Both the position numbers and the translations under genes were made by a program. A model generated the notes under the pieces. The model was not told where the DNA came from. It saw nothing but the letters and a program-made list of their open reading frames with translations, and did no database searches. Positions 5,319 to 60,548 of a stretch of DNA of 64,000 bases are shown here, piece after piece. Position 1 is the first letter of the stretch. The number at the start of each line of letters is the position of its first letter. Origin of the DNA: Squalus acanthias (lineage: Eukaryota); assembly GCA_030390025.1 (NCBI GenBank), contig CM059452.1, forward strand, positions 8,494,001-8,558,000, read 5' to 3'.

Positions 5319-5793
5319 AGTTTTTGTACGAGGGTCTAACTGGTTCCCACCGCTGTGAGAGTCAGCGCGCAGTAATACGTGGCGGAGTCAGCAGGCCACA
5401 GTTTGGAGACGGTTAAGGTGAAGGCGGCATTCGAGCCGTCCAGCGCAGAGGAGAAACGGCTGCGAGCAAAATCCGCTTTAATTTGGTAACCGCCTGAAAA
5501 CCTGCGAACTAGAAACTCCGGTTCTCTGCCGGGGTATTGACGGGACCACAGTAAGCTGTAGGAACTCTTGGTGGTGAAATAGAAACAGTCTAAAGTTACA
5601 ATGCTTCCTTCTGTCCTCCTCACTGTGGGAAGCCGCTGTCTGACAGAGATTTCCTGGCTCAGACCTGAATTAAATGCAAACCAACGTCAAAAACCAAATC
5701 ATTTTTAAATTCACATTTGACCCAAAATCGCGACCCAGAATAATTACCTGTAATAAGTGCTCCAAACACAGCACAGATAGCGATTAACCGCAT
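5319..5793 (-). CDS. TRAV/TRDV: TCR alpha/delta-type V segment 1, apparently functional: leader 5793-5748, V exon 5664-5358, 23-RSS 5357-5319
   Basis: Leader MRLIAICAVFGALIT(G) with GT donor; AG acceptor; open V exon ...VTLDC...LLWSRQYPG...DSATYYCALT; RSS CACAGCG-23bp-ACAAAAACT. Confidence 0.93.
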
Positions 5794-9870: not shown

Positions 9871-11627
9871 TTGTGAGAAATGTGAAAAGCTAGAGCTGCG
9901 TTTACCGGAACACAGATAGCTAAATCTAGTGCTCGATATTAAGAATAACTATTAGAGGCTAAATAGTGAAAGCTATCACTGTGGAGAATTTTGATTCAGG
10001 GTGTCGCAGGGTTCGATGACTAGTGGACAAGAATTAATGTTAAGGGTGTGGAAGGAAAGTGTGAACGTTTAATAACATTGTTAAATTTAAGGAACTTATT
10101 ATGGACATGTTGCCAGCGACGGGATGAAGCAGAAAGCCATGATAATGTTTATAAGAAGGGGAAGATTTCATGTCACTAAAGGAGATACAGAGCTGGTAGA
10201 TCTAGAATCACCACAAGGAAGGTCAGGAGACATTTGAGATGCAAAGGGTACATAGAGCAATGGTCGTCTCTTAAGCAAACCATTACTATACATTTCTGAA
10301 CTTCTTGGGTGACCGGTAACAAGGGAACATAGCATTAGGCTTAGTGTCGGAAAGATGATAGTAATGTATAATATTATCTTAGAATGTGGAATAAATTACC
10401 ACAAGTGACCATAGAGGGCGAGTCAATCACAATGTTAAGGATGCGTTAAAAGAAACAAAATAGAAAATATTGTAGGACAGAGGGAATAGGACGGGAGTAA
10501 ATACTTCCAGTTTACAGCTTGTAATGTCTCAGGTGGCTGAGATCGAAAAAGCGTTCTTCTCTGGTTACATTTCGGAGATTTGTTTAATTCACTGCAGAAT
10601 AATGTTGCGCTCACAAATATCATGTGTTTTAACCAACACGAAGGAACTTAACCTGCTGCAGAAAGTGTATGAGCCGTTCTAATTTACGATGGTTTTGGGT
10701 GACAATTATTCATATTGAACAGTTGATCACTCAAGCACTGGGAAAAGGAACATAGGAACGGGAGTAGACCTGTTCCGCCATTCAGTTAGATCATGGCTGA
10801 TCTCTATCTTAACTCCATTTACCCGCCTTCGTTCCACATCCCTTAATAGCCTTGCCTAACAAACATCTATCCATCTGTTTTTTAATTTTCAGTTGACCTA
10901 GCCTCAAAAGCTTTTTGGGGGAGAGAGTTCCAGACTTAGAATCATAGAATCATTCAGCACAGAAGAAGGCCATTCGGCCCCTCCTGCCCGTGTCGGCTCA
11001 TCTAAGGAGCTGTCCAATTAGTCCCACCCCCTGCTTTTCCTCAAAGACCTGAAAATGTTGCCTTTTTAAAAATATATCCAGTTCCCGCTGGAAAGGTACT
11101 ATTGAATCTGCTTCCACCTGCCTTTCAGGTACTGCATTCCAGATCATAACATCTTGCTGAGTAAAATAATGTCTCCTCGTCTCCCCACTGGCTTCTTGGC
11201 AATTATGTTAACTTCTACTATCTGAAAAAATGCATTTTAGAAGCAGACAGATGCGGAGGAAAGTGTTGTTTGGTGATTGAGAAAACTGAATTCAGTTTTG
11301 TGTTAAGAAGCCGATGAGAAGGCTTGTAGTGCAGGACATCAGAAATGCCAAAAAAAGTAGTGCAGTAGGGAGCTAAATAAGGAAGTGGCGTTTGGTTGAT
11401 CTCAGACTTGGGTTTTAATATCCTGTAATTTGTATGAGGAAGGGACACTGTGGTGATAAGGAGTTCATGAGTGCGCGAATCTGGGGGCGAATTGGTTCCA
11501 AAGTGAAAAAGAAATGGTAATCTATGTGTGACGTTCAGACATTTAAATTAGGGAAAGTCACACATTGATCAGCATTGTTCAGAATAGTCAACCAAAGTAT
11601 ATTCAGGTCCCAGAGCACAGGGTGAGC

Positions 11628-13995: not shown

Positions 13996-14959
13996 AGTTT
14001 TTGTACCAGTGTCAAGTGTTCATGTAACGCGGTGCTACATAGCCGCGCAGTAATACACGGCGGAGTCAGACAGCTGGGTGTGTGTGATGTTCAAAGGGAT
14101 CTTTTTGTTCATTCTGTCCTGTACGGCAGAAAACCGCATTGTAAAGGCCGGTGCGTTCTCTTCATTCCCAGCAGTGTGTCTGACGAGCATATACTGCAGG
14201 CCTGTTCCCGAGTACTGTACATACCAGAATAGGTTAGCGGCTGTGTAGATGACGGGGTAGTTACAGGGCAACACCACAGTATCTCCTTCACTCACTGTTG
14301 CTAGTGAAGGCCCCTGAGAAAGGTTATCCTGCCGGCTGGGTTCTGGAAACAGAGTAAGAGGAGGTTATCAATAGAACATTTAGATATAAAGAGTTTTTCT
14401 ACTTTAGACCAAACACATAGTTGGACAACACACACAAACAGACATTCATACGCAGACACATACACCCAAACAACCACACAATCAAACACACATCTCCCTT
14501 CTGATTCAGCTGTTAACCGCACTGCCAATGCGAAACAGAATGGGAATGTCCAAAGCTTTCGCGCCTCATTTAGCTGATCGCAGGCTGTGGACGGTACAAT
14601 GGTCACAGTGTCTCGGAACATGTGGGTTAATCAGCCTGGGTCCCGTTCCCGCGGGAATATGCATCTCCGTGAATCTGCCGTGTTTACAGTGACCGGCCAT
14701 GTTGTGGCTATTTGGAATAATCTGCGGACACTCACTGACCGGGGGGCAAAACCCGAGGAACCGTACGTCAAAATGGCAGTGTTTTCAACAGTGGAGACAA
14801 TAAACATTAGAGGAGAAATATAACTACCATTAATAAACAAATGAACTATTACAATCTCATGAAATACCTACCCGGTAGAACAGTTAAGAGGAAAAGTAGC
14901 GCTTTGACGGGTACTGTTATGGTCCATAACGCACACTGGGAATAATGAGCCGTGGTCAT
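13996..14959 (-). CDS. TRAV/TRDV: TCR alpha/delta-type V segment 2: leader 14959-14872, V exon 14342-14035, 23-RSS 14034-13996
   Basis: Long leader MTTAHYSQCALWTITVPVKALLFLLTVLP(G) splices in phase to EPSRQDNLSQGPSLATVSEGDTVVLPC...FWYVQ...DSAVYYCAAM*; RSS CACCGCG-23bp-ACAAAAACT; TAG is the last codon before the heptamer. Confidence 0.9.
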
Positions 14960-31460: not shown

Positions 31461-31956
31461 ATGAGGTCGGCGATTTCTCTCAGTCTGTTGCTGGCTTTCT
31501 TATCCGGTGAGTAGTTTTTATTGTCCAAGTCTCTCACTGTTACTGTCTCAGTGTTAGTCTCTCTCTGGAATGTTACAGAGTCAGGAATCATTTCACCAGG
31601 ATTAATCCTCGGGGTTTTTGATTGTTTTTACAGGTGTCCAGTCGGATGTCGTGTTGACTCAGCCAGAGGCAGAGACCAGGAGTCCCGGAGGCTCCCTGAG
31701 ACTGACCTGTAAAACCAGCGGGTTCACTCTTGGCAGCACCTGCATGCACTGGGTCCGGCAGGTTCCCGGACAGGGGCTGGAGTGGCTGGTTAGCTACTAC
31801 AGTTCATCGAGCAAGTAACTACGCCCCAGGGATCCAGAGTCGATTTACTGCGTCCAAAGACACTTCAAACAGCATCTTCGCTTTGGACATGAAGAACCTG
31901 AGGACCGAAGACACCGCCATCTATTACTGTGCAGCAGCCGCTACAGGGGTGGATGG
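31461..31956 (+). pseudogene. IGHV: IgM VH germline-joined to D sequence (VDD-type), frameshifted: leader 31461-31506, V-D exon 31634-31956
   Basis: Leader MRSAISLSLLLAFLS(G); [48 protein letters not shown]; one extra base at AGC-AAGT-AAC (~31812-31816) gives TAA; frame resumes [15 protein letters not shown]...[16 protein letters not shown] with no RSS after YYCA. Confidence 0.93.
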
Positions 31957-31984
31957 CACAGCAGTTACTGTCAATACAAAAACC
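31957..31984 (+). other. 12-bp-spacer RSS at the 3' end of the joined VH-D
   Basis: CACAGCA-gttactgtcaat(12)-ACAAAAACC. Confidence 0.95.
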
Positions 31985-32308
31985 CTCAGCACTAATTGAG
32001 TGAGTCTGGGTCAGTGCCGCTTTCACAATCCAACTGTAGATGCAGTGAAGTCCTATTTGTGTCCAGCACTGTCCACTAGCACAGCTTAATATGGATAAAC
32101 TGTGATAATTAATCATTGATCAGTTGGTGCTTTCAATAACTGTTCATGGGTTACTCTGTGAAATATAAAACATCAGGGAATTTATAAAGAGTGAAAAGTA
32201 TCCATTGACACATTTATCATTTTATGAAGATCCATCGTGACTTTACTTTGCCTCTGGGATGTGAATATTTAAACTAATGTTGGATTTCTGTCTGTTTTAC
32301 ACAGAGCC

Positions 32309-32395
32309 GGTTATTGTGTGACCCAGCCCGGGGAATGTAACACTGTGACGTCATGGACTACTGGGGCCAAGGCACCATGGTGACGGTGACTGCAG
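32309..32395 (+). CDS. IGHJ: JH segment (32348-32395) with 5' 23-RSS (32309-32347)
   Basis: GGTTATTGT-23bp-CACTGTG, then VMDYWGQGTMVTVTA and GTAAG donor. Confidence 0.96.
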
Positions 32396-32439
32396 GTAAG
32401 AAACATTCACTCTTTCAGTAACTGTTGTATTTGTGTCTT

Positions 32440-33710
32440 TATTTTATATTTCTGTTTATTTCAATAATTCATTCATTCACTGAAACTTGGGTTCGGTGGA
32501 TTCTGTATTGAGATTTTTTGCAATGTTTCATTTGATTCTGCTGCAAAGGGATAATAGAATTAAACAGTTTCTTCAGAAAAAATGTTTTTGAGGGATTGAG
32601 TCCCTGATTGATGTGATTTGGTGTTTATCTGCTGATGAGACTGTGCGCCTGGGTTACTTTAAATACCTAACGGCTGTTGAACTGTTTGGCGTTTCTACAA
32701 TGTTTAATCTCGGTGACATCTAATGGTTGCAGGTTTTCTGATCAAATGTAAACATTATGTGATTAAATGTGTTTGAAATAAGATTGTAGGCAGAAAACAG
32801 AAAGCTTTAGCGGTCAAAAATAATCTTAAGATATTTTAATGTATTTTTATTTGTGATATGTACATTGTCATCTATTAATCTAATGTTCACCAACGGTCAT
32901 ATTCAATACGTGAAATGTTACTGTAATTAAAAACTGCATAATTCATTTTTTTTTAGCCTGAATCAGATTTAAAGTAAAATAAATTAAATTATTATAATGT
33001 AGTAATATCACCCAATATTACAACAAGCTATATCAATATTAATTTGTTAAACATGATCCGTCTACTCACAATTCTGCTGTTATTATTTTATATTTATGTT
33101 TATTTCAATAATTAATTCGTTCAGTGATGGATGGGTTCGCTGGATTCTGTATTGAGATTTTTTTGCAATGTTACATTTGATTCTGCTGAAAGGGTTTATA
33201 GAATGAAGCTGCTTCTCCACAAAACGTTCTGTTGCGGGATTCAGCCCCTCAGTGATGTGATTTGCTGTTTATCTGCTGAGGAGAGTGTGTGCCTGGGTTA
33301 CTTTGAATAACTAAAGTTTGTGAAACTGTTTGGCGTTTCTGCAATGTTTAATCTCGGTGACATCGAACTGCTGCAGGTTTTCAGATCTGTTTAAAACTGT
33401 TTGAAAGATGATTGTAGGCGGACAACAAGTAGGTTTTATAAATCAAAAATCATTTAAAAATAATTTAATGCATTTTTTTATTTAAGTGAGAGTTACAGAT
33501 TCAACTGTTAATCTATGGTTTACGGTGCTCACATTTAATAGGTGAAATGTTACTAATTACGAATTATATAATTAACAATTTGCAGGTTGAAGGAGAGTTA
33601 AATTAATATAACTCAAACGATTATAAAGTGGTAATATCGCCCAATATCACTCAGTATGCTGTAGTATTAATATTAATGTATTAAACATTATTCACCTTCC
33701 ACAATTCTGC
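32440..33710. repeat. Diverged ~650-bp tandem duplication immediately 3' of JH
   Basis: 32440-33080 and 33085-33710 share gggttcg..tggattctgtattgagattttttgcaatg and later blocks; a further partial copy at ~34860-35560. Confidence 0.8.
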
Positions 33711-35899
33711 TGTGCACTGGTCACAATTAACGTGAGCGGAGAATTTTAGAGGCTGGAGACAATTTCTGATTATGTCTGAAATTATTTTAATAACAGCAGA
33801 CTGATTCCACCGCAGTGTTCAGTTTAATGAGGGTTTGAAATTAATTGTTATCTCCCTGTTTCACACAGATGAATGACAGATTGTATTTAATTATGCATTA
33901 AATGCGAGTTGTAAATTGCAGTTTGTAAATGTAATAAATCTGCCGGGTTATTAAATTCTTACTGTGCAGCGGAAACCATGTTATTCCTTCAATATTATTT
34001 GTTGTTTGATAGCGAGACAATTATCACTAAACTAATCTTAAACAGTTTGTAAGATCATAGGCTGAGCGGTCGCTGGCAGTCAAAGAATTGTTCATATGAT
34101 TCTATTTAAATTCACGGAAGGTGCAGACTGCGTAAGGCTGGAGACAGACAAATAACCCATTGACATTCAAGCAGATTAATTTAATTACAAAAGATTAATA
34201 TTAGTTTTGAATTTAATAACAACATCCTGTCTCCCATAGCTGTGCTGTATACGGATAGAATTATAGACAGGGAACAGATTACATCTGAGATTTATGTTTA
34301 ATTCTCATTAATGTTAAATTGATCAACAAAATCTCTCCTCCATTTGCTCATTAAATTTCAGTGTCGCAGATGGTCTGATTGATTTGTTCTCCGCCAGTTT
34401 TACACTGATCATTCTGGAACTGATTTTCAATAAATAGCAGAATATATTTAATAATTAATTTACCGGCATTGTGTGAATTACTGGAGTAAAATATAAAAAG
34501 ATTGTCTGTGTTATTAAACAGCGGAGGCTCTGTTACTGACTGCAAACTGGCCGGTTGTCTTTTAATTCACGAAAATAGTATTTGTAGTTAAGATTGAGGA
34601 CAATGTTTAAACTCGAGAGCCCTGCTTTAGTAAACACACGGTGTTACAGTCCATCGGTAGTTAGTGAGATGTGACCACGGCCAGACTTTGAACTATTTAA
34701 AATAGTTCACTCCTAAATCCATCATGTGAAATCCACTCTGAGAAATGATGGAGTTTATGTTGTATCAGAGAGTTCAGAAACATGCAGAGTTTACAAGTGT
34801 GTAGATAGAGAGCGGGAATGTATTAGAAGTTAGTGACCATTTTAACTTATTCAAATGTGATTTGATTTAAGTAAAAATAATATATTTGTCTGAATGTCTT
34901 TATCTATTAATATGATTCTTAATATTTTAATATTGATAAGTGTCATGTTAATTTAATTGAAACCCTATAGTTCACAAGTTACCAGGCAGAAACAGGATTA
35001 AAATTAATATCAACTAATTTTATTATAATGCAGCTAACATCAATATTAACTTAGAATATAATATGAGTGCGAATTTATTAAACATAAATGACCTCCCACA
35101 ATTGCGTTGTATACTGGACAGGATTACAGTTACTGCAAAATCTCAAGGGTTGGAGAGAATTTTAAATTATGTCTAAAATTAATTTAGAAACAATACATGT
35201 CTTACTCAGCTGTGCTCAGCTCGAGAAGGTGTCGCCGCAGATTTTAATGAATTAACTTCGTGTTTTGCCTCGATGATTTTACCGGTTATATTTAATTATG
35301 AAATTATATTAACCCAGTGGTTCCTAGTTCGTTAAATTCTTGCTCTGTCACGGAGTCCCTGTTATATGCAGCAAATTACCCTGGAATGTGAATTATTTCA
35401 GTAAACTGGTTTTCAGGGAAGCTAAATCTTACTCGGTTTGTAAGATTGTAGACAGGGAGGGAGAAATGGTTGGAAGTCGAAGAGAGTTTTTCAAATTAAG
35501 ATCAGTTTAATTTCAGAAAACGTGCAGACTTGAGGTGGTCGGAAATTGACAAGAGATCAATTAGAAATCAGCTTCATTGAAATTGACAGATTGAAGAGAT
35601 CTATCTGCTGAGAGCACGATTGTTGCACCGTTTGTGTCTGTTCTGTTTCTGTGCGCCTGCTCACTGTGTGAGAATCAGGAGTCCTCCTGACTGGTTGCAA
35701 ACCTGCTGGTTTGTTCTCTTGTGTTTCATGGAGAACAATTCGACTCAGTTATTTCAGAAGTTTGTATCTGTGAGAAATGCGATAGTTTGACTTGAAGTTT
35801 CAGGAGGCGCCTCCGAACTGGGATCAGTAACCCAGTTTGTGATAATCAGAAGGAGCATTTCAGAAACACCTCTGGCAGACTGTAGAAGGAGCTTTAATC

Positions 35900-36350
35900 A
35901 GTTTCTAACCCGGGCCGTACCTGCCCCCAATGTGTTTGATTTTGTAATGTAGAGGGAGCGTAATACTGTATCTAACCCGTGCTGTACCTGCCCCGTGTTT
36001 CTTTGATGGAACGGTATAGAGGAAGATTTACTCTGTATCTAACTCGTGCTGTAACTGCCCCGTGACTATTTAATGGGACAGTGTAGAAGGAGCTTTACTC
36101 TGTATCTAACCCGTGCTGTACCTGCCACGGGAGTGTTTGATGGGACAGTGTAGAGGGAGCTTTACTCTGTATCTAACCCGTGCTGTACCTGCCCTGGGAG
36201 TGATTGATGGGACAATGTAGAGGGAGCTTACTCTGTATTTAAGCAGTGCGGTGTCATACCCGGAGCGTTTGTCAGTGCAGTGTAGACTTGGCTTTGCTCG
36301 GAATCAATCCCTTGCTATACCTGACAGTGCAGAGGGAGCTTTACTCTATA
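35900..36350 (+). repeat. 67-bp satellite-like repeat; inverted array at 49675-49845
   Basis: Unit AGCTTTACTCTGTATCTAACCCGTGCTGTACCTGCCCTGGGAGTGTTTGATGGGACAGTGTAGAGGG. Confidence 0.9.
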
Positions 36351-37109
36351 TTATCTGTACTGTAACAGAGCTGAGAGTGCTTTGTCCCGTGTTGCTCAAG
36401 GAACCTTAATCTGCATCCAACTAATAAAGTGTGAGTTCTCGAGCCAGATATATAAAAATAAAACTTTCCATTGCTCCGATGAAACAACCGCGCATTAATT
36501 GAGTTTAACCTCATTGCAAATAAAACTGCCCATTTTTTAATGAATTGATAAACTTTAAACATTTTGAGTATCAGATAATGATTGAATGAGATTGGCCTGA
36601 TCCTGAGCTCACTTTCAGAACAAACAGTTTCAGGAAGTGACTGTAACGCTCCAGAAAGCAGCGCCTGTTCTGATCTGATGGGAGGCTGGAAGTTATTTTG
36701 ACAATTTAAATGGAGAATGTCGAGACTCCCGCTCCAAATAACCATCATGGGAACCTTATGTTTGAAAGCATTATTTCGTTCAATTGTTTTTAAAAAGGTA
36801 ACAGGCCGGGACAAACTCGGGTGAGGTGCAGCTATTGGACTGGGTCACAGCACAAGGCTCACAGTCACTGAGCCGCACCTCTGTGAAACATTTAAAGAGA
36901 AACAGTCAGCCTGCGATGAGTCGTCATTCACAATAAGCTTTAAGACTCTGTGACGGTATCCGATTGAATCATTTGAGTCAAATTCCTCAGTTCCTTTATT
37001 TTAAATATCCTCTTGCATTATAACAAACAATAAAATAGATCTGATAGAGGTGTTCAACATTATGAAGCGTTTCCTTCCATTAAATCGGGAAGAACTAATT
37101 CCGCTGAGC

Positions 37110-38260
37110 CGTGTAGAATCACAGAATCTCAGAGCACAGAAGGGGCCATTCGGCCCGTCTTGCCTGTGCTGGCTCTGAAAGAGCTGTCCAATCAAATCCC
37201 AGCTTTTCCTCGTAACCCTGCAAATGAGTCCTCTTCAAGAACATGTCCAGTTGCCTCGTGCATTCCAGAACTTAACAACCCTCTGTTTGAAAAAAATATC
37301 CTAATTTCCCCTCTAGTTCTTTTGCCAATTATTTTAAATCTGTGACCTTTGGTTACCGACCTACTCGCCAGAGGAAACCGTTTCTCCCGACTTGCTCTGA
37401 CAAAACCTCTCTCAATTTTGTACAGCTCTATTAAGTCTCCCCTTAATCTTCTCTACTCCAAGGAACAATCCCAGTTTTTCCAATCTCTCCGCATAACTGA
37501 AGTCTCTCATCCCTGGCATCATCCTGGTCAACCTCCTCTGTACCCTCTCCAAGGCCTTGTCATTCTTCCTAAATTGTGGTGTCAGAATTGTATACACTAC
37601 TCCATCTGATGCCTAACCAGTGATTTGTAAATGTTTAGCAGGACTTCCTTGTTTCAATGCTCCTTTTACAATGGCAAGTATCTCACACACGTCCGTAACT
37701 GCCTGATCAACTTGCCCTGCCACCTTCACAGATTTGTGAATATGCACCCCAGGTCCCTCTGCTCTTGCACCCCCTTAAAATAGTACCACTTAGATTAAAC
37801 TGTCTCTCCCTGTTTTTCCTCCCAAAGTCCATCACTTCTCACGTAACTGCAATATATTGCATCAGCAACATGTCTACCCATTTCACCAGTCTGTCTATGT
37901 CCTCCTGAAGTCCGCTGCTATCCTCCTCCCGAGTTACTACGTTGCCAAGTTTTGCATCATCTGCGAACTTGGAAACTATACTCCCTATAAACAGGTCCAG
38001 GTAATTGATATATAAAACATGAAAAGCAATGGTCCTAATACCGACCCAAGGGGGACCCCACTGCATACTTCTCTCCAGTCAGAAAAACATCCGTTCACCA
38101 CTACTCTCTGCCTCCTCTCCCTCAGCCAATTACATACCCAAGTTACCTCCATCCTTTAATGTGTTTCTATTTTCCGAATAAGTCTTTTATGAGATACTTT
38201 ATAAAATGCCATTTGAAAGTATGTATGTACAACATCTACTGCAACACCATCATCAACCCT
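37110..38260 (-). mobile_element. CR1 LINE fragment in the J-C intron
   Basis: SKFADDAKLG; KALERVQRRLTRM. Confidence 0.85.
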
Positions 38261-40056
38261 CTCTGTTACTTCACACTGTAGACCGAGCTTTCAGTATCTG
38301 ACCAATAAGCCGCAGGTGTTTGAGTTATCCGCACAAACCAGAAGCCAGAGTTTCCCACATCAGCAGTCAGCACATTAGTTATTGTTTGTCCTTCCTTACA
38401 TAGAACCCGCTGATAACCAATCGATTTATAATGTTTAAGGATTGCCAATATTAGATATTTAGAGAAGAAACCTGTCCCGATGTTTAGATTATTTTCGGTA
38501 CAAACAGCAACAAGAAGTGACTGTAACGACCCAGAAAGCAGCGCCTGTTCTCACTGGTGGGAGGTTGGAAAGTAATTTGGAAAATGAAATGGAGCATTTA
38601 AAGAGCATCGTTCCATATAACCGGCTTTGGGAATCGTATTTAATTCGGTTTATTTAATTGAGTGAGTGGGAGGAGGAAAGTCAGGAGACATCCATTCAGT
38701 AGAATGGGATAGAGCACAAGTCACACTGCATCGCTCTCCCTCCAATTCTGAGAAGGAAAGAGAGAGACTCGAATCAATCCCGATTCATCTAAAGCTTGAA
38801 TCTTAGAAACCAGGCTGTGCAAAAGTTCCCTATTCAAATCTGTGCGCTGAATTATTCCGCTCACATTTTAAAGGAGACTTCAACCATTTATTGTAAACGT
38901 CCTTTATTGTCATGGGAACAAAGAAGATTTAGATGAGGTCTGATAGAGGGGTTTGGAATTATGAAGGGTTTTATGAAGGGATTCGGGAAACATATTTCCC
39001 GGGTCGGTGAGTTGGTGAGTAAATGGCACTGATTGAAAATCAGCAGCAACAGAATGAAGGGAGAGGGTATTATTCTACTTTTCTACACAGGGGGCTGTTG
39101 AACATGGGATGTCCTATCAGAAAGAGGGCTGCATGCAGAATCCATAATAGCTCGATAAAATTGTACAGTTGAGAAGATTGGGAATTGGAAGGTGCACGGG
39201 ATTGGTGGAGAGATCTTTCAGAGGCGTGATTGGCCGAATAGCCTCCTTCTGTGCTGTAAAGTTGTATTATTTTATAATTCTGGTCATGCTTTATAAACAT
39301 GCTGGGATTTGTTTTAAAGGTAATACAACTAGTAGATCTAGCTGTAGGAGTTGTGTGATTAGGAGAACTAATCCCACCGCTATTCAAACAAGTCTATCCC
39401 CTGAAAACAACAACTTGCATTTATATAGCGCCTTTAACGTAGTAAAACGTCCCAAGACGATTCACAGGAGCGTCAGCAGATACAATCTGACACCGAGCCA
39501 CATAAGGAGATATCATTTTATTCTTTAGTATGGTTGGTAGTTACTCTGACAGTTGACCAAAAGCTTGGTCAAAGAGGTAGGTTTTAAGGCAGCATCTTAC
39601 AATGGAGAGATGACGACACTTTGATATCATGGAATGGCCTGATTCTGTGCTGATAATAAGAGGCTGACAGCAAAAGGATGTAGGGAGGAGCTCAGTGGAC
39701 AGAATGTGAAAGAATCTAATGTGAAAGTGGTTGGGGAATGAGGGAGTGTTCCATAACAGGGGATCAAGAGCTGGAGGAAGTCCACGATACAATATTCCGG
39801 CATTCACTCGGTATAAAGGGGCCTCATGGACAGAATGCCCCTTTCAGACTCCTGACTTTTCTTATGTACAAGACTGGAGTCACATGAAGGCATTTCACGT
39901 CGGGTCTCACAATTCACAGAAACTCAAATGCTGATCTAGGTTTTGATCGGCAAATGATGGAATTAGTTCATCCTGTAGTCACATTTCGAGTTGTTTGGTT
40001 ATGTTATAAGCACGGATTACAGAGTCTAACTTGTTCAATTGGCCATTCTTTCCCAG

Positions 40057-40356
40057 CGACACAGTCTCCTCCCACCCTCTACGCCCTGCTCTCCTCCTGT
40101 GAACAACCCAACACCGGCGGCCCCGTCACGTTCGGCTGTTTGGCGATGGACTACTTCCCGGAAATCACCAGCCTTTCCTGGAGTAAAGATAAAGAGCCGA
40201 TCACCACTGGATTGAAGACCTACCCGTCAGTGTTCAACAAGCAGGGAACCTACACCCTGAGCAGCCAGTTAACCATCACCGAGTCAGAGGTGGGGAGCAG
40301 CGCCATCTACTGCCAGGTTCGACGAAGTGGGTCGGACTGGAGCGTCAAAATGCCAG
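40057..40356 (+). CDS. IGHM: IgM constant exon CH1
   Basis: AG/GT-bounded 300-nt phase-1 exon [16 protein letters not shown]...[11 protein letters not shown]...SWSKD...YTLSSQL...IYCQV. Confidence 0.95.
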
Positions 40357-40384
40357 GTTAGTGTTGTGGGATACAGGGGGAAAC

Positions 40385-41205
40385 TGTGAAAAGCAGAGAA
40401 GTTATGTTCAACTTCTATACAACTTTGTTTAGACCAGACTTAGAGTACTGTGCACAGGTCTGATCTCCATATCACACTAAGAGCACTGTGCACAGGTCTG
40501 GTCTCCATATCACACTTAGAGTACTGTGTACAGGTCTGGTCTCCATATCACACTAAGAGCACTGTGTACAGGTCTGGTCTCCATATCACATTTAGAGCAC
40601 TTTGTACAGGCCTGGTCTCCATATAACACTTAGTGTACTGCCTATAGTTTTGGTTTCCATATCACACTTAGTGTACTGTGTACAGGCCTGGTCTCCATAT
40701 TATAAGAATGATACAGAGGCACTGGAGAAGTGCAAAAAAGATTTACAAGGACGATACCAGAAAGAAAAATTGTAACCGTCAGGAATGATTGAACGGGTTT
40801 GGGATCTTTTCTCTAGAAACGAGAAGTCTGAGGGTTGACCGAATAGAGGTCTTTAAAATTCTGAAGGGGTTTGTAAGGTTAGACGTAGAGACAATATTTC
40901 TGCTTGAGGAGGAGCCCGATACTAGGGGCCATAAATATAAGATTATCACTAATAAATCAATAGGGAATTCAGGAGAAACTTCTTTACCCAGAGAGTGGGT
41001 AGAATGTGGAACTCGCTACCACATGGAGTAGTTGAGGCGAATAGCATAGATGTGTTTCAGGGGAATCTAGATAAGTACAGGAGGGAGAAAGGAATAGAAG
41101 GTTATGTTGATGAGGGAGATGAAGTAGGGAGAGAGGAGGCTCATGTGGAGCATAAACACCGACCTGTTGGGCCGAGTGGCCTGTTTCTGTTTTGTAGATT
41201 CTATG
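40385..41205 (+). mobile_element. CR1 3' fragment containing a 38-39-bp minisatellite (40440-40700)
   Basis: About 7 copies of TAGAGTACTGTGTACAGGTCTGGTCTCCATATCACACT inside CR1 sequence. Confidence 0.8.
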
Positions 41206-41278
41206 TAAAAAAACACTTTACAATTCTTAATTGTTTGGATTGCAACAAATAATCCCAATAAAATGTATTTTCTTGCAG

Positions 41279-41590
41279 ATCGTGTGGTACATCATCCAAC
41301 TGTGATCCTCACCCTGAGTTCCAGTGAAGAAATCATCAGCAGCAGGTCTGCAACCGCCGTGTGTTCAATCATCGATTTCCGTCCAAACTCAATGACCGTG
41401 AATTGGCTGAAGAAAGGACAACTCATGGATTCGGGCTTCGTCACCTCTCCCGTCTTTGAAGTGAACGGGAACTTCTCGGCGACCAGTCGGCTGACATTCC
41501 CCGCCGGGGAATGGTTCGCCGGCTCGGTCTATACCTGCCAGGTCTCTCATCAAGGGGACATCCAAAGCCGAAACATCACCAGATCTCCGG
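41279..41590 (+). CDS. IGHM: IgM constant exon CH2
   Basis: 312-nt phase-1 exon HPTVILT...[12 protein letters not shown]...VNWLKKG...GEWF...YTCQVSH. Confidence 0.95.
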
Positions 41591-41894
41591 GTAAGAGACA
41601 CAATCCCGAGAAGTCCCAGACCATTCTGACCGCTGATCTCTGCCAGCAATTTTATTGGAATTCGTAAAAAGCACAGAAATATTTCTAATTTCCAATCACA
41701 CAGTTTGTGTTTCCTTCCGATGTCAGTGCTGACTCAGGGTTCCTCACGGTTCAGGATTCCAGCACTTCGCCAAAGGTTTCCCTCAGCTGTGATGTCAGTG
41801 AGTGAGGTGTCCTCAGTCTCAGGTTTACCCTGAGAAAGCTCTATTTCTAATTTACAATCATGCTGTTTGTGTTTTCTTCCGATATAAAATAAAA

Positions 41895-42295
41895 GAAAGA
41901 ACTGCCTTTACATAGCGCCTTTCCCGACCTCTGGACGTCCCAAAGCGCTTTACTGCCAAGGAAGTACTTCCTGAAATGTGGTCACTGTTGTAATGTAGAA
42001 ATCGCGGCGGCCAATTTGCAGACAGTAAGGTCCCACAAACAGCAATGTAATAATGATCAGATAATTTTATTATTTGGTGATGGATAGGTATTGACCAGGC
42101 CACCTGGGAGAACTGCCCCGCTCTTCCTCCAAATAGAGCCATGGGATCGTTTATGTCCAACTGAGAGAGCAGACGTCGGTTTAACGTCTGATCCAGAAGG
42201 CGACAATGCAGCGCTCCCTCAGTGCTGCACTGGGAGTGTCAGCTCACATTTTGTGTTCAAGTATCTGGAGTGCGACTTGAACCCACGATCTTCTG
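41895..42295 (-). mobile_element. Shark tRNA-derived SINE (HE1-like), near full length
   Basis: B-box-like GGTTCAAGTC near 42280 on the minus strand; L2-like tail ending in (TTTC)n. Confidence 0.75.
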
Positions 42296-42494
42296 AATCA
42301 GGATTCCTCATGGCTCAGGATTCCATAACCTCGCCAAAGAAGGTTTCCCTCTGCTCTGATGTCAGAGAGTACATGAGGTGTCCTTGGTCTCAGGTTAATC
42401 CTGAGTTGGCTGATCATATTCGGAGCGACAGTAGGTGTCTGGAACCCCTTACTGGTAACTGTCTCGGGACCCACTGCTAGAAAGGACATCTACC

Positions 42495-43040
42495 CTATTT
42501 AGAGAACTGCGTTCAATTCTGGGCACCGCACATCAGGATGGATATACTGGCTTTAGAGGGATGCAACGCAAATTCACCCGAATCATACCGGGGCTGAAAT
42601 GGTTAAATTATGAGGACAGGTTGCACAGAATAGGCTTGTATTCCTTTGAGTATAGAAGATTAAGAGGTGATCTAATTGAGGTGTTTAAGTTGATAAATGG
42701 AATTGATAGGGGAGATAGAGAGAAACTATTTCCTCTGGTGCGGGAGTCCAGAACAAGGGGCATAACCTTAAAATTAGAACCGAGCCGTTCAGGGGTGATG
42801 TCAGGAAGCACTTCTTCACACAAAGGACAGTGGAAATCTGGAACTCTCTCCCCCAAAAGCTGTTGAGGCTGGGGGTCAACGGAAAATTTCAAAACTGAGA
42901 TTGATAGATTTTTGTTAGGCAAAGGTATCAAGGGTTACAGAAACAAGGCGGGTAGATGGTGTTGAGGTGTAGATCAGCCATGATCTCATTGAATGGCGGA
43001 ACAGGCTGGATGGGCTGAATGGCCTGCTCCTGTTCCCATG
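42495..43040 (+). mobile_element. CR1 3' fragment
   Basis: QRKFTRIIPGL...RRLRGDLIEVFK. Confidence 0.85.
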
Positions 43041-43742
43041 TTGTTATTACTGCCCTGCGGTCATATTTCCTTCTGACTCTCTCACCAGACATGTTAAGTG
43101 CTCACTAATGACAGAGATGAAGAAACTACTTCACATCGGCATTACACATTATTCACCACCACAAAGACCCCTTGGAACTCCATTCTCCCGACCTTTCACT
43201 TCTCCTCTGACGGGGGCTGCAACTGGTTCCTGCACATTTTCATCGCCCCCAAAATCGCAACAAGACACCAGAAAATTAACTTTGTTTCCTGTTGCACCTA
43301 AAATCCTGGATATCATTTGACACTCGTTTTGAACCAGTGTAATTTTCGTGTAGAGCTCTTGACCCTGGGGGCGGAGCCATTATAATGAGCGGGAATGCGT
43401 TCGGGCACAAGGATCTAGAGACGGGCGTAAAGGAGCAAGGGATTTCAGGAAGAGCGCTACTCAGTGCGTAACACAATTGCGCCCGAATTTATTCATTTTT
43501 TACGCCGGGTATTTGCTTCACAGCCCATTACAGGAGGCTCTGGGAGCAAATACACAGGAAATGTTAAAGAGTCTCCCGGAATCGTTGTCAATTCGTTGTC
43601 CTTCCAATAACGATGGTGTTTAAGCAACAACGAGAGGTTGATATCTCAAAGGTGATTTATTCTCCCTGAGAGAGTGAAGGCTGAATACTGGTGTCCTGAT
43701 TCTGAAGATGAAGCTTTGCTTGACTTTCATTTCTGTTCACAG

Positions 43743-44051
43743 ATGGTTCCTCATGCAACGATCCAGAAATCACTCTTCCGCAACCGTCACTAGAACAGGT
43801 CTTACTGGAGGCGACGGTGACCTTAACCTGCGTCGTGTCTAATGCTCCTTATGGAGTCAACGTGTCCTGGACCCGAGAAAAGGAGACTTTGAAATCAGAG
43901 ATTGCCGTCCAACCCGGAGAGGCTCCCAACAGCGTGATCAGCAACTTAAACATCTCGACACAAGCCTGGCTGAGTGGGGATGAGTTCTACTGCGTGGTGA
44001 GCCATCAGGATATGCCGACTCCTATAAGAGATTCCATCCACAAGGAAAAAG
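43743..44051 (+). CDS. IGHM: IgM constant exon CH3
   Basis: 309-nt phase-1 exon [29 protein letters not shown]...VSW...[14 protein letters not shown]. Confidence 0.95.
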
Positions 44052-44569
44052 GTGAGCGGTGAGATTGTAGCAATAAGTGAGACTCTGTGACTATTTCCGG
44101 TGCTTGTGCACGGCCCAATTCGTTCTATTAAGTGTTTTAATGGACTGCTCTGATAATTCAATGGGTAATTCCACTAACTAAACCCTCTGGGACCCGAGAT
44201 GATGCATTTAAGGGGAAGCTGGATAAGTCAATGAGGGAAAAAGGAATAGAAGGATATGTTATTAGGGTTAGATGAAGTAAGGTGGGAGGAGTCTCGTGTG
44301 GAGCATAAACAGCGGCATTGACCAGTTGGGCCGAATGGTCTGTTTCTATGATGTAAATTCTATATAATTTTCCAGTCCAACTCTTCAAGCTCCCAGAGAG
44401 AAGGATTGTATCCCGCTCTGCTCCGGGCTGGAAAACCGGACAGGACACAGAGGGGAAAAGGGAATCCTTTAAAATTCAGCGCAAAGCACATTTCTCTCAC
44501 ATCTAACCGCCGGTTTCATTGTCTCTGGAATTCTCCAGTTTATTGACCTTTATTGTAATTGTTCTGCAG

Positions 44570-44961
44570 CTAAAGATCCGCGGGAACCGTCCGTGTCTGT
44601 CCTCCTGCCCCCGGCAGAAGAAGTCTCCGCTCAGAGGTTCGTCAGCCTCACCTGCTTAGTGAGAGGTTTCTCCCCCCGAGAGATCTTCGTCAAGTGGACC
44701 GTCAATGACAAGCCGGTGAATTCCGGCAACTACAAGAACACCGAGGTGATGGCGGAGAACGGCAGCAGTTCCTTCTTCATGTACAGCCTGTTATCCATTG
44801 CAGCGGAGGAGTGGGCCAGCGGCGCTTCTTACTCCTGTGTGGTGGGACATGAAGCGATCCCCTTGAAGATCATCAACAGAACGGTTAATAAATCCAGCGG
44901 TAAACCCAGTTTTGTCAACATTTCCCTTGTTCTGATGGACACCGTCAATTCTTGTCAATGA
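44570..44961 (+). CDS. IGHM: IgM constant exon CH4 plus secretory tailpiece
   Basis: [10 protein letters not shown]...[18 protein letters not shown]...YSCVVGHE...[24 protein letters not shown]; internal donor G|GTAAA at 44899/44900; tailpiece N-glycan site and penultimate Cys. Confidence 0.97.
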
Positions 44962-44989
44962 GAATCTCTCGATTGCATTTCAGTTCTTG

Positions 44990-45005
44990 AATAAAAACCA
45001 ATAAA
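44990..45005 (+). terminator. Secretory-form polyadenylation signals
   Basis: Two AATAAA about 30-45 nt after the tailpiece stop. Confidence 0.8.
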
Positions 45006-45394
45006 GGCCTTTTCTTCCAATCGTCAGTTACACACACAGCCGCTCAATTAATTTTGTTTCCCAGTTTTGCCAAGGGGAGGGCTGTTTATCTGAAGCAGGA
45101 TATTTGCCGGTCTCGGGCCCAAGGCTTGTACAGCCAGCGCTCCCAGCTCAGATACACCACGGGTTAGAGACAGACTGAAGCTCTTTCATGACAGGATTCC
45201 TCAAAGTCACTTCAGCAACTTTCCTCCCGCTGGGGGGAATCAAAAAGTTCCCATTTCAGACAAACAAACGCAGCACATTTAGATCTCGGTGTCCCTGTTT
45301 CTCGTGTTGTCCATCCCTTCAGAATTGGGGCCAGTTTTATTTTGCAGCATCGCAACCTCTGGGATCTGAAATAAGGCCACACACGAACACGAAC

Positions 45395-46837
45395 TGTAAC
45401 CCCCACTCCCCCACCAGAGAGAGGGGAAAGGGCAATTGTTAACCCACTGTACCCCACTCCCCCACCAGAGAGAGGGGAAAGGGCAATTGTTAACCCACTG
45501 TACCTCCCACTCCCCCACCAGAGAGAGGGGAAAGGGCAATTGTTAACCCACTGTACCCCAACACCCCCACCAGAGAGAGGGGAAAGGGCAATTGTTAACC
45601 CGCTGTACCTCCCACTCCCCCACCAGAGAGAGGGGAAAGGGTAATTGTTAACCCACTGTACCCCCACTCCCCCACCAGAGAGAGGGGAAAGGGCAATTGT
45701 TAACCCACTGTACCCCCACTCCCCCACCAGAGAGAGGAGAAAGGGCAATTGTTAACCCACTGTACCTCCCACTCCCCCACCAGAGAGAGGGGAAAGGGCA
45801 ATTGTTAACCCACTGTACCTCCCACTCCCCCACCAGAGAGAGGGGAAAGGGCAATTGTTAACCCACTGTACCTCCCACTCCCCCACCAGAGAGAGGGGAA
45901 AGGGCAATTGTTAACCCACTGTACCCCCCACTCCCCCACCAGAGAGAGGGGAAAGGGCAATTGTTAACCCACTGTACCTCCCACTCCCCCACCAGAGAGA
46001 GGGGAAAGGGCAATTGTTAACCCACTGTACCCCCCACTCCCCCACCAGAGAGAGGGGAAAGGGCAATTGTTAACCCACTGTACCCCCACTCCCCCACCAG
46101 AGAGAGGGGAAAGGGCAATTGTTAACCCACTGTACCCCCACTCCCCCACCAGAGAGAGGGGAAAGGGCAATTGTTAACCCACTGTACCCCCACTCCCCCA
46201 CCAGAGAGAGGGGAAAGGGCAATTGTTAACCCACTGTACCCCCACTCCCCCACCAGAGAGAGGGGAAAGGGCAATTGTTAACCCACTGTACCTCCCACTC
46301 CCCCACCAGAGAGAGGGGAAAGGGCAATTGTTAACCCACTGTACCCCCACTCCCCCACCAGAGAGAGGGGAAAGGGCAATTGTTAACCCACTGTACCCAC
46401 CACTCCCCCACCAGAGAGAGGGGAAAGGGCAATTGTTAACCCACTGTACCCCCACTCCCCCACCAGAGAGAGGGGAAAGGGCAATTGTTAACCCACTGTA
46501 CCCCCACTCCCCCACCAGAGAGAGGGGAAAGGGCAATTGTTAACCCACTGTACCCCCCACTCCCCCACCAGAGAGAGGGAAAGGGCAATTGTTAACCCAC
46601 TGTACCCCCCACTCCCCCACCAGAGAGAGGGGAAAGGACAATTGTTAACCCACTGTACCCCCACTCCCCCACCAGAGAGGGGAAAGGGCAATTGTTAACC
46701 CACTGTACCTCCCACTCCCCCACCAGAGAGAGGGAAAGGGCCATTGTTAACCCACTGTACCCCCACTCCCCCACCAGAGAGGGGAAAGGGTAATTGTGAA
46801 GCCACTGTACCCCCACTCCCCCACCAGAGAGAGGGGA
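45395..46837. repeat. ~52-bp G/C-run minisatellite, about 27 copies
   Basis: Unit CCCCACTCCCCCACCAGAGAGAGGGGAAAGGGCAATTGTTAACCCACTGTAC. Confidence 0.97.
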
Positions 46838-47169
46838 GGTGAACCAATCTCTATTATATGAACTCAGTTGCCATCAGTAAAAAGTCAGCTTTAACTCACA
46901 GTCTAAAAACGTTAAAGTTGCCGGATGAGAATCATATTGTAAAATAAATATTTATTCAACAACTTATCTTTAACTAGTGTTTGGGGTAAATCTGTCCCTG
47001 TTATTCATAAACTAACAGATTGAATTTTAATAGTCCAAATTTGAACTGGTGATTGAATCCTCTGCGGGTTTCTCACGGTTGTGTCCCTGAAGATTCTGAG
47101 GCCCATCGGCTGACGTCACATTGCGTCTCACACAGAACACATTTACACAGAGCGGGGAAGAATGCGTGT

Positions 47170-47900
47170 AAAGTGAGTGTGTCTGTGTTTATGTGTAAGT
47201 GCGTTTGCGATTTTGTGTAAGTGTGTGTGTTTTGTGTAAGTGCACACTTACACATAAACACACACAGACTTACACATAAACACACGCATTAACACATTGA
47301 CATAGAATATTACACATACCCAGAATATAATACACACCGTCATTGTCAGACCCAGTTATTGGTACTCTCTGAAACTTTGAACAGTACCGGAAATACACAC
47401 GCGCACACCCTTAAACAAAGCACACACAAACACATGCATTAACACACACACACTTACACACGCATAAACTCACACATGAACACAAACACACACACATACA
47501 AACACACACACTTACATGCAAACACACACATGTACACATAAACACACACACGCTTACACCTGAACATACACAAACACTTACACATAACCATAAACATACA
47601 CATAAACACACACATGGACGCACATACACAAAAACAAACACACAATTAAACATAAACACAATTACAAATAAACACACACACTTATACAAAGACTTACACA
47701 TAAACATACACAAACTGACAAAAATACACGCACACTTACACATAATCACACACTTACACATAAATACACATATATAGAATTACACAAACACACAATTACA
47801 CAAACACACAAACACGCAAACACACTTACACAGCAACACACACATTAACACACAAACACAGACTAAAACAAAACAAGAGATTGTCAGACACACATACGCA
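47170..47900. repeat. Degenerate (CA)/(TG)-rich simple repeat
   Basis: Runs of acac/taca/aaac. Confidence 0.9.
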
Positions 47901-48549
47901 AACACGAATGCGCGAAAAAACCTCAGGCTATAGACGAATGTAGAATTAAAATGCACTTTTTGAACGAACACAGTTTCCAACGATTGTTCTGAATGAATAA
48001 TTCTTGATACCATAACATCTCACATTTCTCTATTCTGGTCCTACACATACACTGAATCAATGTTCTTGTTGGAAACTGATACAAGTTAATTATGTTCAGA
48101 GCATTGCCATAACAAATAAATAAACAAGATTATAACTCACATCTGATCTCTTACCCAGCCCCCTTGACAGTCTCCAAATAAGTAGCTATCTAAACCTATC
48201 GTTAAAATAATCGATATCAATCAGTAAACCTCCCTCGATATTTCATCATATTATTCCCGAATGATAGATTGTACGAAATTGATGCAAAATCAATTAGCGT
48301 GTGACATTGAAGAAAAAACTGTCGTTTTTTCCAACACGGACTATAGGAGGATCATAAAGGAAGAGCGACTGTGGAGTTAGGAACAGAGATAGATTGCTGA
48401 GAGAGATTAACTTAACACAAGATATACATTGAAAATTCAATTAGAGAACAAACTAATACCTTAAGGAAAAGAAGAGAATATATAATAATAATATGATATC
48501 TTGGATTAATAAACGATCTGAATATATTTCCGCCTCTACATCCCCGTAG

Positions 48550-48826
48550 ATTCCTCAGACCACATCTTGATTGAAGACTATGAGGAAGAGAGCGGCAACA
48601 TCTGGACAACCGCTTCCACATTCATCATCCTGTTCTTCCTGAGCATGTCCTACAGCGCTGCCGTCACTCTAGTGAAGGTGAGAAGATTCAATCCACTCAC
48701 ACTTCGATCTGACTGAAGCGGTTTGACAAATCTCTAAAAGTTTCATTGATAAATACCCTGAGATAAATGCCCCAAACCACTAAATCTCTGCTTCATTCTT
48801 TTATCCCTCTTTTACAGATCAAGTGA
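48550..48826 (+). CDS. IGHM: IgM membrane exons TM1 (48550-48677) and TM2 (48818-48826)
   Basis: DSSDHILIEDYEEESGNIWTTASTFIILFFLSMSYSAAVTLVK|IK* (antigen-receptor TM motif, KIK tail); canonical splice sites; AATAAA at ~48890 and ~49283; absent from the ORF track. Confidence 0.95.
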
Positions 48827-55386: not shown

Positions 55387-55858
55387 ATGTGCTCCCCGTG
55401 TTCCATACTGATAATAATGGTCGTGCTGTCCAGTGAGTTCATATGTAAATGGTCATTGTGTGTTTCACGGATTATCCTTACTCCCAGACTTTTGACACAT
55501 TCTGTGTTTTGTTACAGGAACGAGTGGCAAAAAATCAGTGTCCCAGGATCCGTCTGAATTAATGGTTCAGGAAGGAAAAAGCATAATATTGAACTGCAGT
55601 TACCCGGCAGCTGCTCCAACTCTGTTCGGGTACATCCAGTATCCCGGGGAAGCTCCGAGATATTTACTGAGGATATATAGCTCGGGGACGGTAGACCAGT
55701 CTCCAGATTTCCCAGGCCGGTTTTCTGCTGTTTTGCACAGAGACAGCAAAACGGTCCCTTTAAATATCACCGCGGTTCTTGTCACCGACAGCGCCGTGTA
55801 TTTCTGTGCCATGAGCCCCACACTGCTGCAGAGATATAGCGGATCCCGTACAAAAACC
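55387..55858 (+). CDS. TRAV/TRDV: TCR alpha/delta-type V segment 3, open but lacking the conserved FR2 Trp: leader 55387-55432, V exon 55518-55818, RSS 55819-55858
   Basis: Leader MCSPCSILIIMVVLS; SVSQDPSELMVQEGKSIILNC...LFGYIQYPG (W->G)...DSAVYFCAMS; CACACTG-24bp-ACAAAAACC. Confidence 0.88.
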
Positions 55859-57170: not shown

Positions 57171-57683
57171 ATGCGGCTACTCAGCATCTGGGCTGTGTGG
57201 GGGCATTTCTGACAGGTAATTGTGGACCAAACACATTTCATCTTTTCTCTCATTTCTAACATGGTTTGAATCTGAATTTTAAACACCCGCCGGTCTGATC
57301 TTTTCCTGTTTGAACATGTTTTTCAGATCTGAGTCTTGGAGATTCTGTCACTCAGCCGCTGTCCTCAGGAGTTAAGACAGAAGGAGAAGCGGTGACTGTA
57401 AACTGTACCTATGGCACTAAATGGAGCACCTTTAATTATTTATATTGGTACCGGAACCACCCAGACACACAGCCCGAGTTTATACTGTGGAAGGATCATG
57501 ATGGAGTTGATGGTGTTGAGCATAAAGCAGATTTTGGTAAAACCCGTTTCTCTGCAGAAATCCAGACCTGGACTAAATTCACCAGTTTAACCATCTCGGG
57601 GCTGCAGCTGACCGACACTGCAGTTTATTACTGCGCCCTGAGACCACACTGATGGAAACCAGTTAAACCCTGGTACAGAAACT
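57171..57683 (+). pseudogene. TRAV/TRDV: TCR alpha/delta-type V segment 4: intact V exon 57327-57644 and 23-RSS, leader 57171-57215 one base short
   Basis: DSVTQPLSSGVKTEGEAVTVNC...LYWYR...DTAVYYCALR; CACACTG-23bp-ACAGAAACT; leader is 45 nt versus 46 nt in paralog V1, with the loss in a G run. Confidence 0.88.
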
Positions 57684-58394: not shown

Positions 58395-58739
58395 TGTTTT
58401 TGTACGGGGCTCCCTCTGGTTCCTGTCACTGTGTCTCTCAGCCTGCAGTGATACACCGCGCTGACAGACAGCTGTAGGCCGCGGATGGTGAAATTCCCCT
58501 CACTTTCTGAAATGTCGTGAAATGCGGAAATTCGAGCCCCCGTGCCCTCTGCTTTGAAAACATCTCCCTAAGAAGGACTGTAGATCAGCAATGTTGGCCC
58601 TTGTCGCGGTCCTGACGGTACAGTTGTAAGGAATGTGAAGGAGCAGTGGTCGAATAGCTGTAATTACTGGTCACCGAGTCTCCTTCAAACTGTATCGCTG
58701 CAAGCGGCCCCTGTGAGACCGAGTCCGCACAACTAACAA
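58395..58739 (-). pseudogene. TCR alpha/delta-type pseudo-V 5 (exon 58739-58434) with near-perfect 23-RSS (58433-58395)
   Basis: ADSVSQGPLAAIQFEGDSVTSNYSY...LQLYRQ...(frameshift)TLLIYSPS*...GNFTIRGLQLSVSAVYHCRLR; first Cys and Trp lost; CACAGTG-23bp-ACAAAAACA; no leader found; absent from the ORF track. Confidence 0.9.
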
Positions 58740-59977: not shown

Positions 59978-60548
59978 GAGAGATTCAGTCAATTTCTAAT
60001 AATACTGGCGGCTGTGTTGAACAGTAAGTATTGGATTATATTTAAAACACAGGTTAGCTGGTTGATGCAAAGAGCGTGTGCAGGGATTTAGTGCAATTAC
60101 CGATCAGAAATATCCACATGATGGACAGCTGTGTAGATGGAGGGTTATCCACTCTCATACAGATAGACACAAGTTTCGATTTAATCTTCTGCTCTTCTGT
60201 TCCCCTATCTTCACAGGCGGGCTGTGTGCAGATCCAGTAACTCAGTCTCCGGTGACAATTGCCGTGTCAACAGGGGGTTCGGTGCAGTTAGATTGTGAAT
60301 ATACAATCACGGATATTGACTACATGCAATGGTATCGGCAGCAATCGGCACAGCCACCAAGCTGGATAATTAGCAAAACAGTAGCACTGAAGGGAGACGA
60401 AATCTCAGGACAATATCTGGCAGCTGCTAATACGTCTAGAAAGTACGGTTACCTCAATATAAACAGCCTGAGTGTGGAGGACGGAGAGGTCTATTACTGT
60501 GCAGTGAGGCACAGCGTCAGATAAAAGTAAAGGCCCCGGACAAAAACC
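59978..60548 (+). CDS. TRAV/TRDV: TCR alpha/delta-type V segment 6: leader ~59978-60023 lacking ATG, V exon 60217-60509, 23-RSS 60510-60548
   Basis: Leader (E)RFSQFLIILAAVLN|GTAAGT; DPVTQSPVTIAVSTGGSVQLDC...MQWYRQ...EDGEVYYCAVR; CACAGCG-23bp-ACAAAAACC. Confidence 0.87.

Follow-up and report, generated by a model that had tools for sequence, protein, structure and literature searches.

A shark IgM minicluster with a VDD-J joint of likely germ-line origin, in a genome where all eight join states are found

The IgM minicluster and its coding state

At 31461-48677 of the window, the whole 64,000-nt stretch of DNA analysed here (G000:C29:8494001-8558000, C29 being the window's own contig), lies an elasmobranch IgM minicluster, a single cassette in which a leader, one V, its D segments and one J precede Cmu1-4 and a membrane exon. 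The leader exon of the VH (31461-31506), with its ATG and a phase-1 GT donor, is followed by the VH exon, which runs from 31634 to a likely untrimmed coding end (31931-31939), and the JH segment (32348-32395) carries the WGQG motif and a GT donor; all exons and segments are on the plus strand. The Cmu1 (40057-40356), Cmu2 (41279-41590), Cmu3 (43743-44051) and Cmu4 (44570-44961) exons are open, the last including the secretory tailpiece and having human mu chains among its best PDB matches, and the membrane exon has approximate bounds of 48550-48677. The domains of the cassette belong to the V-set and C1-set of Pfam. Past the secretory exon and ahead of the membrane exon, 45395-46840 is taken up by a tandem array of a ~50-bp purine-rich unit.

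V, D1 and D2 are fused at 31928-31956. The Cys codon of the YYC motif (31928-31930) is followed by an Ala codon (31931-31933), then by 23 nt (31934-31956) and at once by the 3' 12-RSS of D2 (31957-31984, plus strand), which faces the JH 23-RSS (32309-32347, minus strand) across a D2-JH spacer of 324 bases (31985-32308). This is as an earlier note on this DNA had described it, in coordinates and letters alike. An RSS scan called no further signal from V to J; the 12-RSS is identical in 19 of the 22 clusters that retain one (window included) and the 23-RSS is of the commonest form (11 of 22). Comparison with unjoined paralogs found no V 23-RSS, D1 RSS or D2 5' RSS left in the window cluster, the four inner RSSs and their spacers being wholly excised. 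Scan and paralog comparison agree on the VDD-J configuration given in the earlier note, and the unrearranged layout V-D1-D2-J from which that note had reasoned is the RSS layout seen in 12 unjoined paralogs of the same genome.

The V exon is 297 long against 296 in in-frame family-A paralogs, i.e., one base longer, and the extra base, which lies in CDR2 near 31815 and had been overlooked previously, causes a +1 frameshift with a stop at 31816-31818. As assembled, the V reading frame is therefore not that of a functional rearranging IgH cluster and, since the stop lies before the junction, no D2-J join can rescue a heavy chain. That only the last join is still open, as had been proposed, thus holds for the DNA signals but not for the product, which is sterile as assembled. 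The cluster is a pseudogene as assembled, and the gene as a whole is probably dead. The frameshift sits where two paralog CDR2 types diverge, a stretch from which L066 lacks 1 nt, and could be an assembly error. That the extra base is an assembly or polishing error in a functional germ-line VDD-J cluster, in which a single D2-J join made in B cells would give a half-fixed CDR3, is accordingly a possibility, if a doubtful one: the leader, splice sites, both RSSs, J and all C exons are intact, and the V exon is open in 37 of the 40 clusters examined and broken in three (window, L052 and L066), but the extra base lies outside any homopolymer, CDR1 contains an extra, unusual third Cys codon and, as a weaker point, the window junction is absent among the 12 joints listed for RNA-type runs. 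The extra base was in no listed row when sought in the contigs of eight public runs (X1, X9, X5, X8, X13, X16, X15 and X4; X9 read to ~55%).

The cluster is flanked on both sides by T-cell-receptor-type V segments, whose TCR alpha/delta-type V RSSs, with 23- or 24-base spacers and in both orientations, are at 5319-5357, 13996-14034, 55819-55858, 57645-57683, 58395-58433 and 60510-60548. An isolated 12-RSS-like site with a perfect heptamer, to which no segment was assigned, is found at 11425-11452 on the minus strand.

Composition and origin of the V-D1-D2 joint

The joint was parsed with D and V templates taken from unjoined clusters of the same genome, using exact or one-mismatch matching. 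Sixteen of its 23 nt are exact, in-order pieces of the D1 and D2 of unjoined paralogs; in a shuffle control (n = 3000) coverage averaged 5.8 nt and never exceeded 13, so none of the 3000 reached 16, so that the D remnants are not due to chance. The D1 remnant (31941-31949), trimmed by 3 nt at its 5' end and with its last G common to D2, matches the D1 of unjoined L042 exactly, and the D2 remnant (31949-31956), whose 3' end is intact, is an exact match to the D2 of L039 and L033. Both remnants named in the earlier note are therefore recovered, and its proposed alignment to unrearranged IgM clusters of the same species assigns D1 and D2 with no N bases needed when one mismatch is allowed: the parser left 3 nt unexplained with exact matching and 0 with one mismatch.

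The zero-N parse consists of a 9-nt V end, one P base, D1 and D2. The first 9 nt after the Cys codon are 1 base off the V end of unjoined L047, a cluster that is only distantly related to the window cluster, and 3 off the commonest end; unjoined V ends differ from one another at 0-3 of their 9 bases. The next base (31940) is a G, the complement of the terminal C and thus a likely P nucleotide, and a full V end followed by G and a trimmed D1 is also found in three other V-D1 joint lineages (L034/L035, L038 and L041). The chance that a random 7-mer allows such a parse is 0.003-0.005. On these grounds, i.e., the one-mismatch parse, the recurrence in three lineages and the low chance value, the window joint is probably a full-length, diverged V end joined through a P base to D1 and D2, free of N. 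Its ends at coding borders, its trimming and its P base are those of a RAG-type coding joint, with the P assignment hanging on the V-end parse. The V trimming and the GC-rich, N-like stretch proposed in the earlier note do not fit this parse, in which the V end has its full length and the stretch is made up of V end and complementary G.

The germ-line joint could instead hold a V trimmed to the Ala codon and ~7 N bases, which would require that TdT had been at work in germ cells. The V exons nearest to that of the window cluster, those of L065 and L066 (96%), have the common end, from which the window's differs by three substitutions, the 7 nt are rich in G and C, and the joint of L063 has an unparsed stretch of ~9 nt, but the recurrence of the exact 9-nt length with its complementary G, its low chance value and the natural variation of unjoined V ends make this quite improbable, as does the little sign of TdT in germ-line light-chain joints, which are RAG-like and have P bases in the accessible part of PMC2193156. 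The zero-N reading applies to the window joint; parsing failed even with one mismatch for 8 joint rows (including L032, the D2-J joint of L038, L057-L060 and L063) and left 4-10 nt unexplained in several other joints, partly through J divergence, so that germ-line joints as a whole cannot be called N-free.

From comparison of the sequences, the window joint is very likely of germ-line origin. Joined IgM clusters make up 28 of the 40 examined, and 19 of the 26 on C29, and the same joint recurs at separate loci (L061/L062, L028/L029, L037/L052, L034/L035 and L049-L051); although some recurring joints may be haplotype duplicates, duplicated joints speak against somatic capture because a polyclonal somatic process would not yield them. 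Among the 16 best matches to the upstream flank (91-94%; best 40 candidates scored), 15 were examined and all are joined clusters, the examined unjoined clusters ranking lower at 86-90%, and no unjoined parent with the window's flanks was found among the clusters examined. The nearest J-C intron to that of the window is 96% identical. These observations lend indirect support to the suggestion of the earlier note that RAG was active in the germ line, which is most likely correct.

The contending view is that the assembly captured a somatic two-step rearrangement from a lymphocyte. It is a real rival, since somatic VDD-J intermediates are frequent in the thymocytes of nurse shark and are also met with in B cells (PMC2435157, as far as its accessible text goes). 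The window joint is moreover single-copy in G000, no other cluster carrying it within 3 mismatches; the best 40 of 56 candidates included neither an allele-level second copy nor a haplotig matching the joint with its flanks, and the other allele may be missing from a haploid assembly. Contigs of the eight public runs, which drop rare variants, did not bridge the joint, and this speaks neither for nor against it. Somatic capture is nevertheless highly improbable: most clusters are joined and many joints duplicated, no unjoined cluster has the window's flanks, and somatic joints are rich in N whereas the window joint is low in N. For run X13, taken by guess as RNA, 11 joints are listed; nine have ≥5 untemplated bases, as judged by eye over three joints, and these N-rich joints are likely somatic; one of the remaining two has ~2 untemplated bases, so that low N does not by itself prove a germ-line origin, and the other has 0-1, is far deeper and also occurs in DNA run X9. 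Run X9 in addition holds the D1-D2 joint of L040, which is not surely independent support because X9 could be related to the source of the assembly.

The D2-J spacer with its RSSs (31957-32347) differs from that of unjoined L066 by 3 mismatches in 391, i.e., 0.8%, the J-C intron by 3.4% (p = 0.004), and the window Cmu4 (44570-44960) is identical in 8 places, window included. The far greater uniformity of the D2-J spacer and Cmu4 than of the J-C intron likely reflects gene conversion between clusters. Such exchange could be turned into an origin of the joint without RAG at the locus, by conversion from another joined cluster or by homology-driven deletion; with the four inner RSSs gone without remnant, breakpoints at coding ends and no second cluster carrying the joint within 3 mismatches, this is even less probable than somatic capture. 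Joining between clusters, V from one and D-J from another, was weighed, since clusters of both V families have the D2-J spacers nearest to that of the window, and is unsupported, the trees leaving the window cluster without a close sister in forks they do not resolve; trans-rearrangement of the open 12-RSS to the neighbouring TCR V 23-RSSs was set aside because it would give no useful product.

The preferred reading, held with good confidence, is that of a shark IgM minicluster, a pseudogene as assembled, whose V, D1 and D2 were fused by RAG in the germ line of an ancestor without N addition, leaving only the D2-JH signals. Acting in a germ cell or in the early embryo, RAG would have cut the V 23-RSS/D1 12-RSS and D1 23-RSS/D2 12-RSS pairs and removed both spacers in two deletions. 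The V hairpin would have opened off-centre, giving one P base, and the D ends would have been trimmed and ligated without TdT input, after which the joined allele was presumably inherited and drifted. RAG in lymphocytes could still join D2 to JH, although the message would stop in CDR2.

Join states across the genome

Clusters were searched for with the V-J stretch, J and Cmu4, the best 40 of 89, 51 and 58 candidates being scored, respectively, and the count came to 40 clusters in which J is accompanied by a conventional VH; L054, L055, L069, L071 and L076, which have a J without an adjoining conventional VH, were excluded. All eight join states are present among the 40. Twelve clusters are V-D-D-J and ten VDDJ, eight are VDD-J (six distinct joints), four VD-DJ and three V-DDJ, and VD-D-J, V-DD-J and V-D-DJ are each represented by a single cluster. 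VDD-J, the state of the window cluster, is the commonest partial state and accounts for 8 of the 26 clusters on C29.

Two clusters differ by one join. L033 (VD-DJ; G000:C29:6599800-6604300) and L032 (VDDJ; G000:C29:8645800-8650300) have their V-D1 and D2-J joints in common, are <1% apart and are sisters in trees of the upstream region plus V (100/100) and of the J-C region (100/98). What sets L032 apart from L033 is a D1-D2 join made precisely at the coding ends, together with a short J deletion, and the best reading is that L032 likely arose from L033 when a partially joined cluster was joined once more, later, in the germ line. L040 (V-DD-J) and L031 (V-DDJ) similarly have the V end and D1-D2 joint in common, a weaker case because the J-C tree puts L040 nearer to unjoined L039. 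In the unjoined clusters L043 and L030 the V 23-RSS is intact and the V end next to it has a G-rich tail resembling D1; this may be an open-and-shut joint, or a V-D1-joined gene may have been opened again by a crossover.

Of the five J-bearing places left out of the count, L069 (G000:C29:8439100-8449000) and L071 (G000:C29:8040100-8050000) contain a VNAR-like V with D and J, a cassette that we take to be NAR-TCR-like. Further on they have a second V, tandem 60-bp repeats with RSS heptamers and an IgM-type J without RSS, the same RSS-less J being found in L054, L055 and L076. The Cmu1-3 exons of L069/L070 are 96-99% like those of the window. The VNAR-like V of L069 runs straight into a 12-RSS and is a pre-joined V-D of a T-cell-receptor-type cassette. 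The low-N VDJ joint noted above for X13 and X9, at a depth of 394 in X13, was sought in G000 and not found; it is likely an expressed germline-joined IgM, which may vary from animal to animal or have been left out of the assembly.

Taken together, the genome may be read, with somewhat better than even confidence, as a fossil record of repeated, stepwise, TdT-poor germ-line V(D)J recombination, in which at least 40 clusters occur in eight states, most are joined, some are re-cut in later generations (L033 to L032), pre-joining extends to a NAR-TCR-like cassette and animals may differ in their content of joined genes. The VDD-J cluster of the window would be one snapshot of this process.

Known systems and significance

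Germline-joined shark IgM clusters are already known, and the window cluster adds one more. Partially pre-joined clusters are established in the accessible parts of several reports (PMC4279169, PMC5192425 and PMC8355894; VD-J and VD-DJ are named in PMC5192425). Those of the horn shark (VD-J and VDD; Kokubu et al., 1988, as cited in the available text of PMC2193156 and PMC4279169) are IgM miniclusters in which V and D are fused in genomic DNA and J is separate behind an RSS, as in the window. Joined and split horn shark heavy-chain genes are not especially close, by the same text of PMC2193156, whereas joined and unjoined clusters of the present genome are 95-96% alike in V, so that their joints can be parsed base by base; the window copy differs further in being frameshifted. 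The NS4 (kappa) light chains of the nurse shark (Lee et al., 2000; PMC2193156, seen in part) resemble the present genome in their independent, recent joins with cleanly excised RSSs, P bases, little sign of TdT and some joined genes that are pseudogenes, whereas the window cluster is a heavy chain with two joints, incompletely joined, among clusters in all eight states.

The somatic 2R VDD-J IgH intermediates of the nurse shark (Malecek et al., 2008; accessible portion of PMC2435157) have the configuration of the window, with no strict order of joining, but are clone-specific, show N/P diversity and do not occur in the DNA of erythrocytes. Nurse shark IgM1gj, too, is a germline-joined IgM heavy chain but, as described in the available part of PMC4279169, is fully VDJ-joined, expressed and without Cmu2, whereas the window cluster has four Cmu exons and its D2-J step open. 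Elasmobranch IgH clusters have been linked to TCR alpha/delta, with TCR-type V exons between IgH clusters as in the window (PMC12227049, in the parts available, in which partial germ-line IgM joins do not appear). In the literature within reach, which leaves out most subscription papers, neither a genome-wide census of join states nor stepwise germ-line joining was found. The census of all eight states and the VD-DJ/VDDJ sister pair, which points to stepwise joining, are what the present analysis adds.

The window gene alone is an expected shark feature, and value beyond the single gene lies mostly in the surrounding census, in which it is one of ~20 germ-line joints of independent origin that have near relatives still unjoined, all within a single genome. 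Such a set makes it possible to test, at the level of sequence, RAG activity in germ cells without TdT, the completion of partial joins in later generations, a bias in join order mirroring that of lymphocytes and the pace at which clusters are lost to joining. If the stepwise reading is true, germ-line recombination would act as a ratchet by which clusters that rearrange become fixed genes or pseudogenes.
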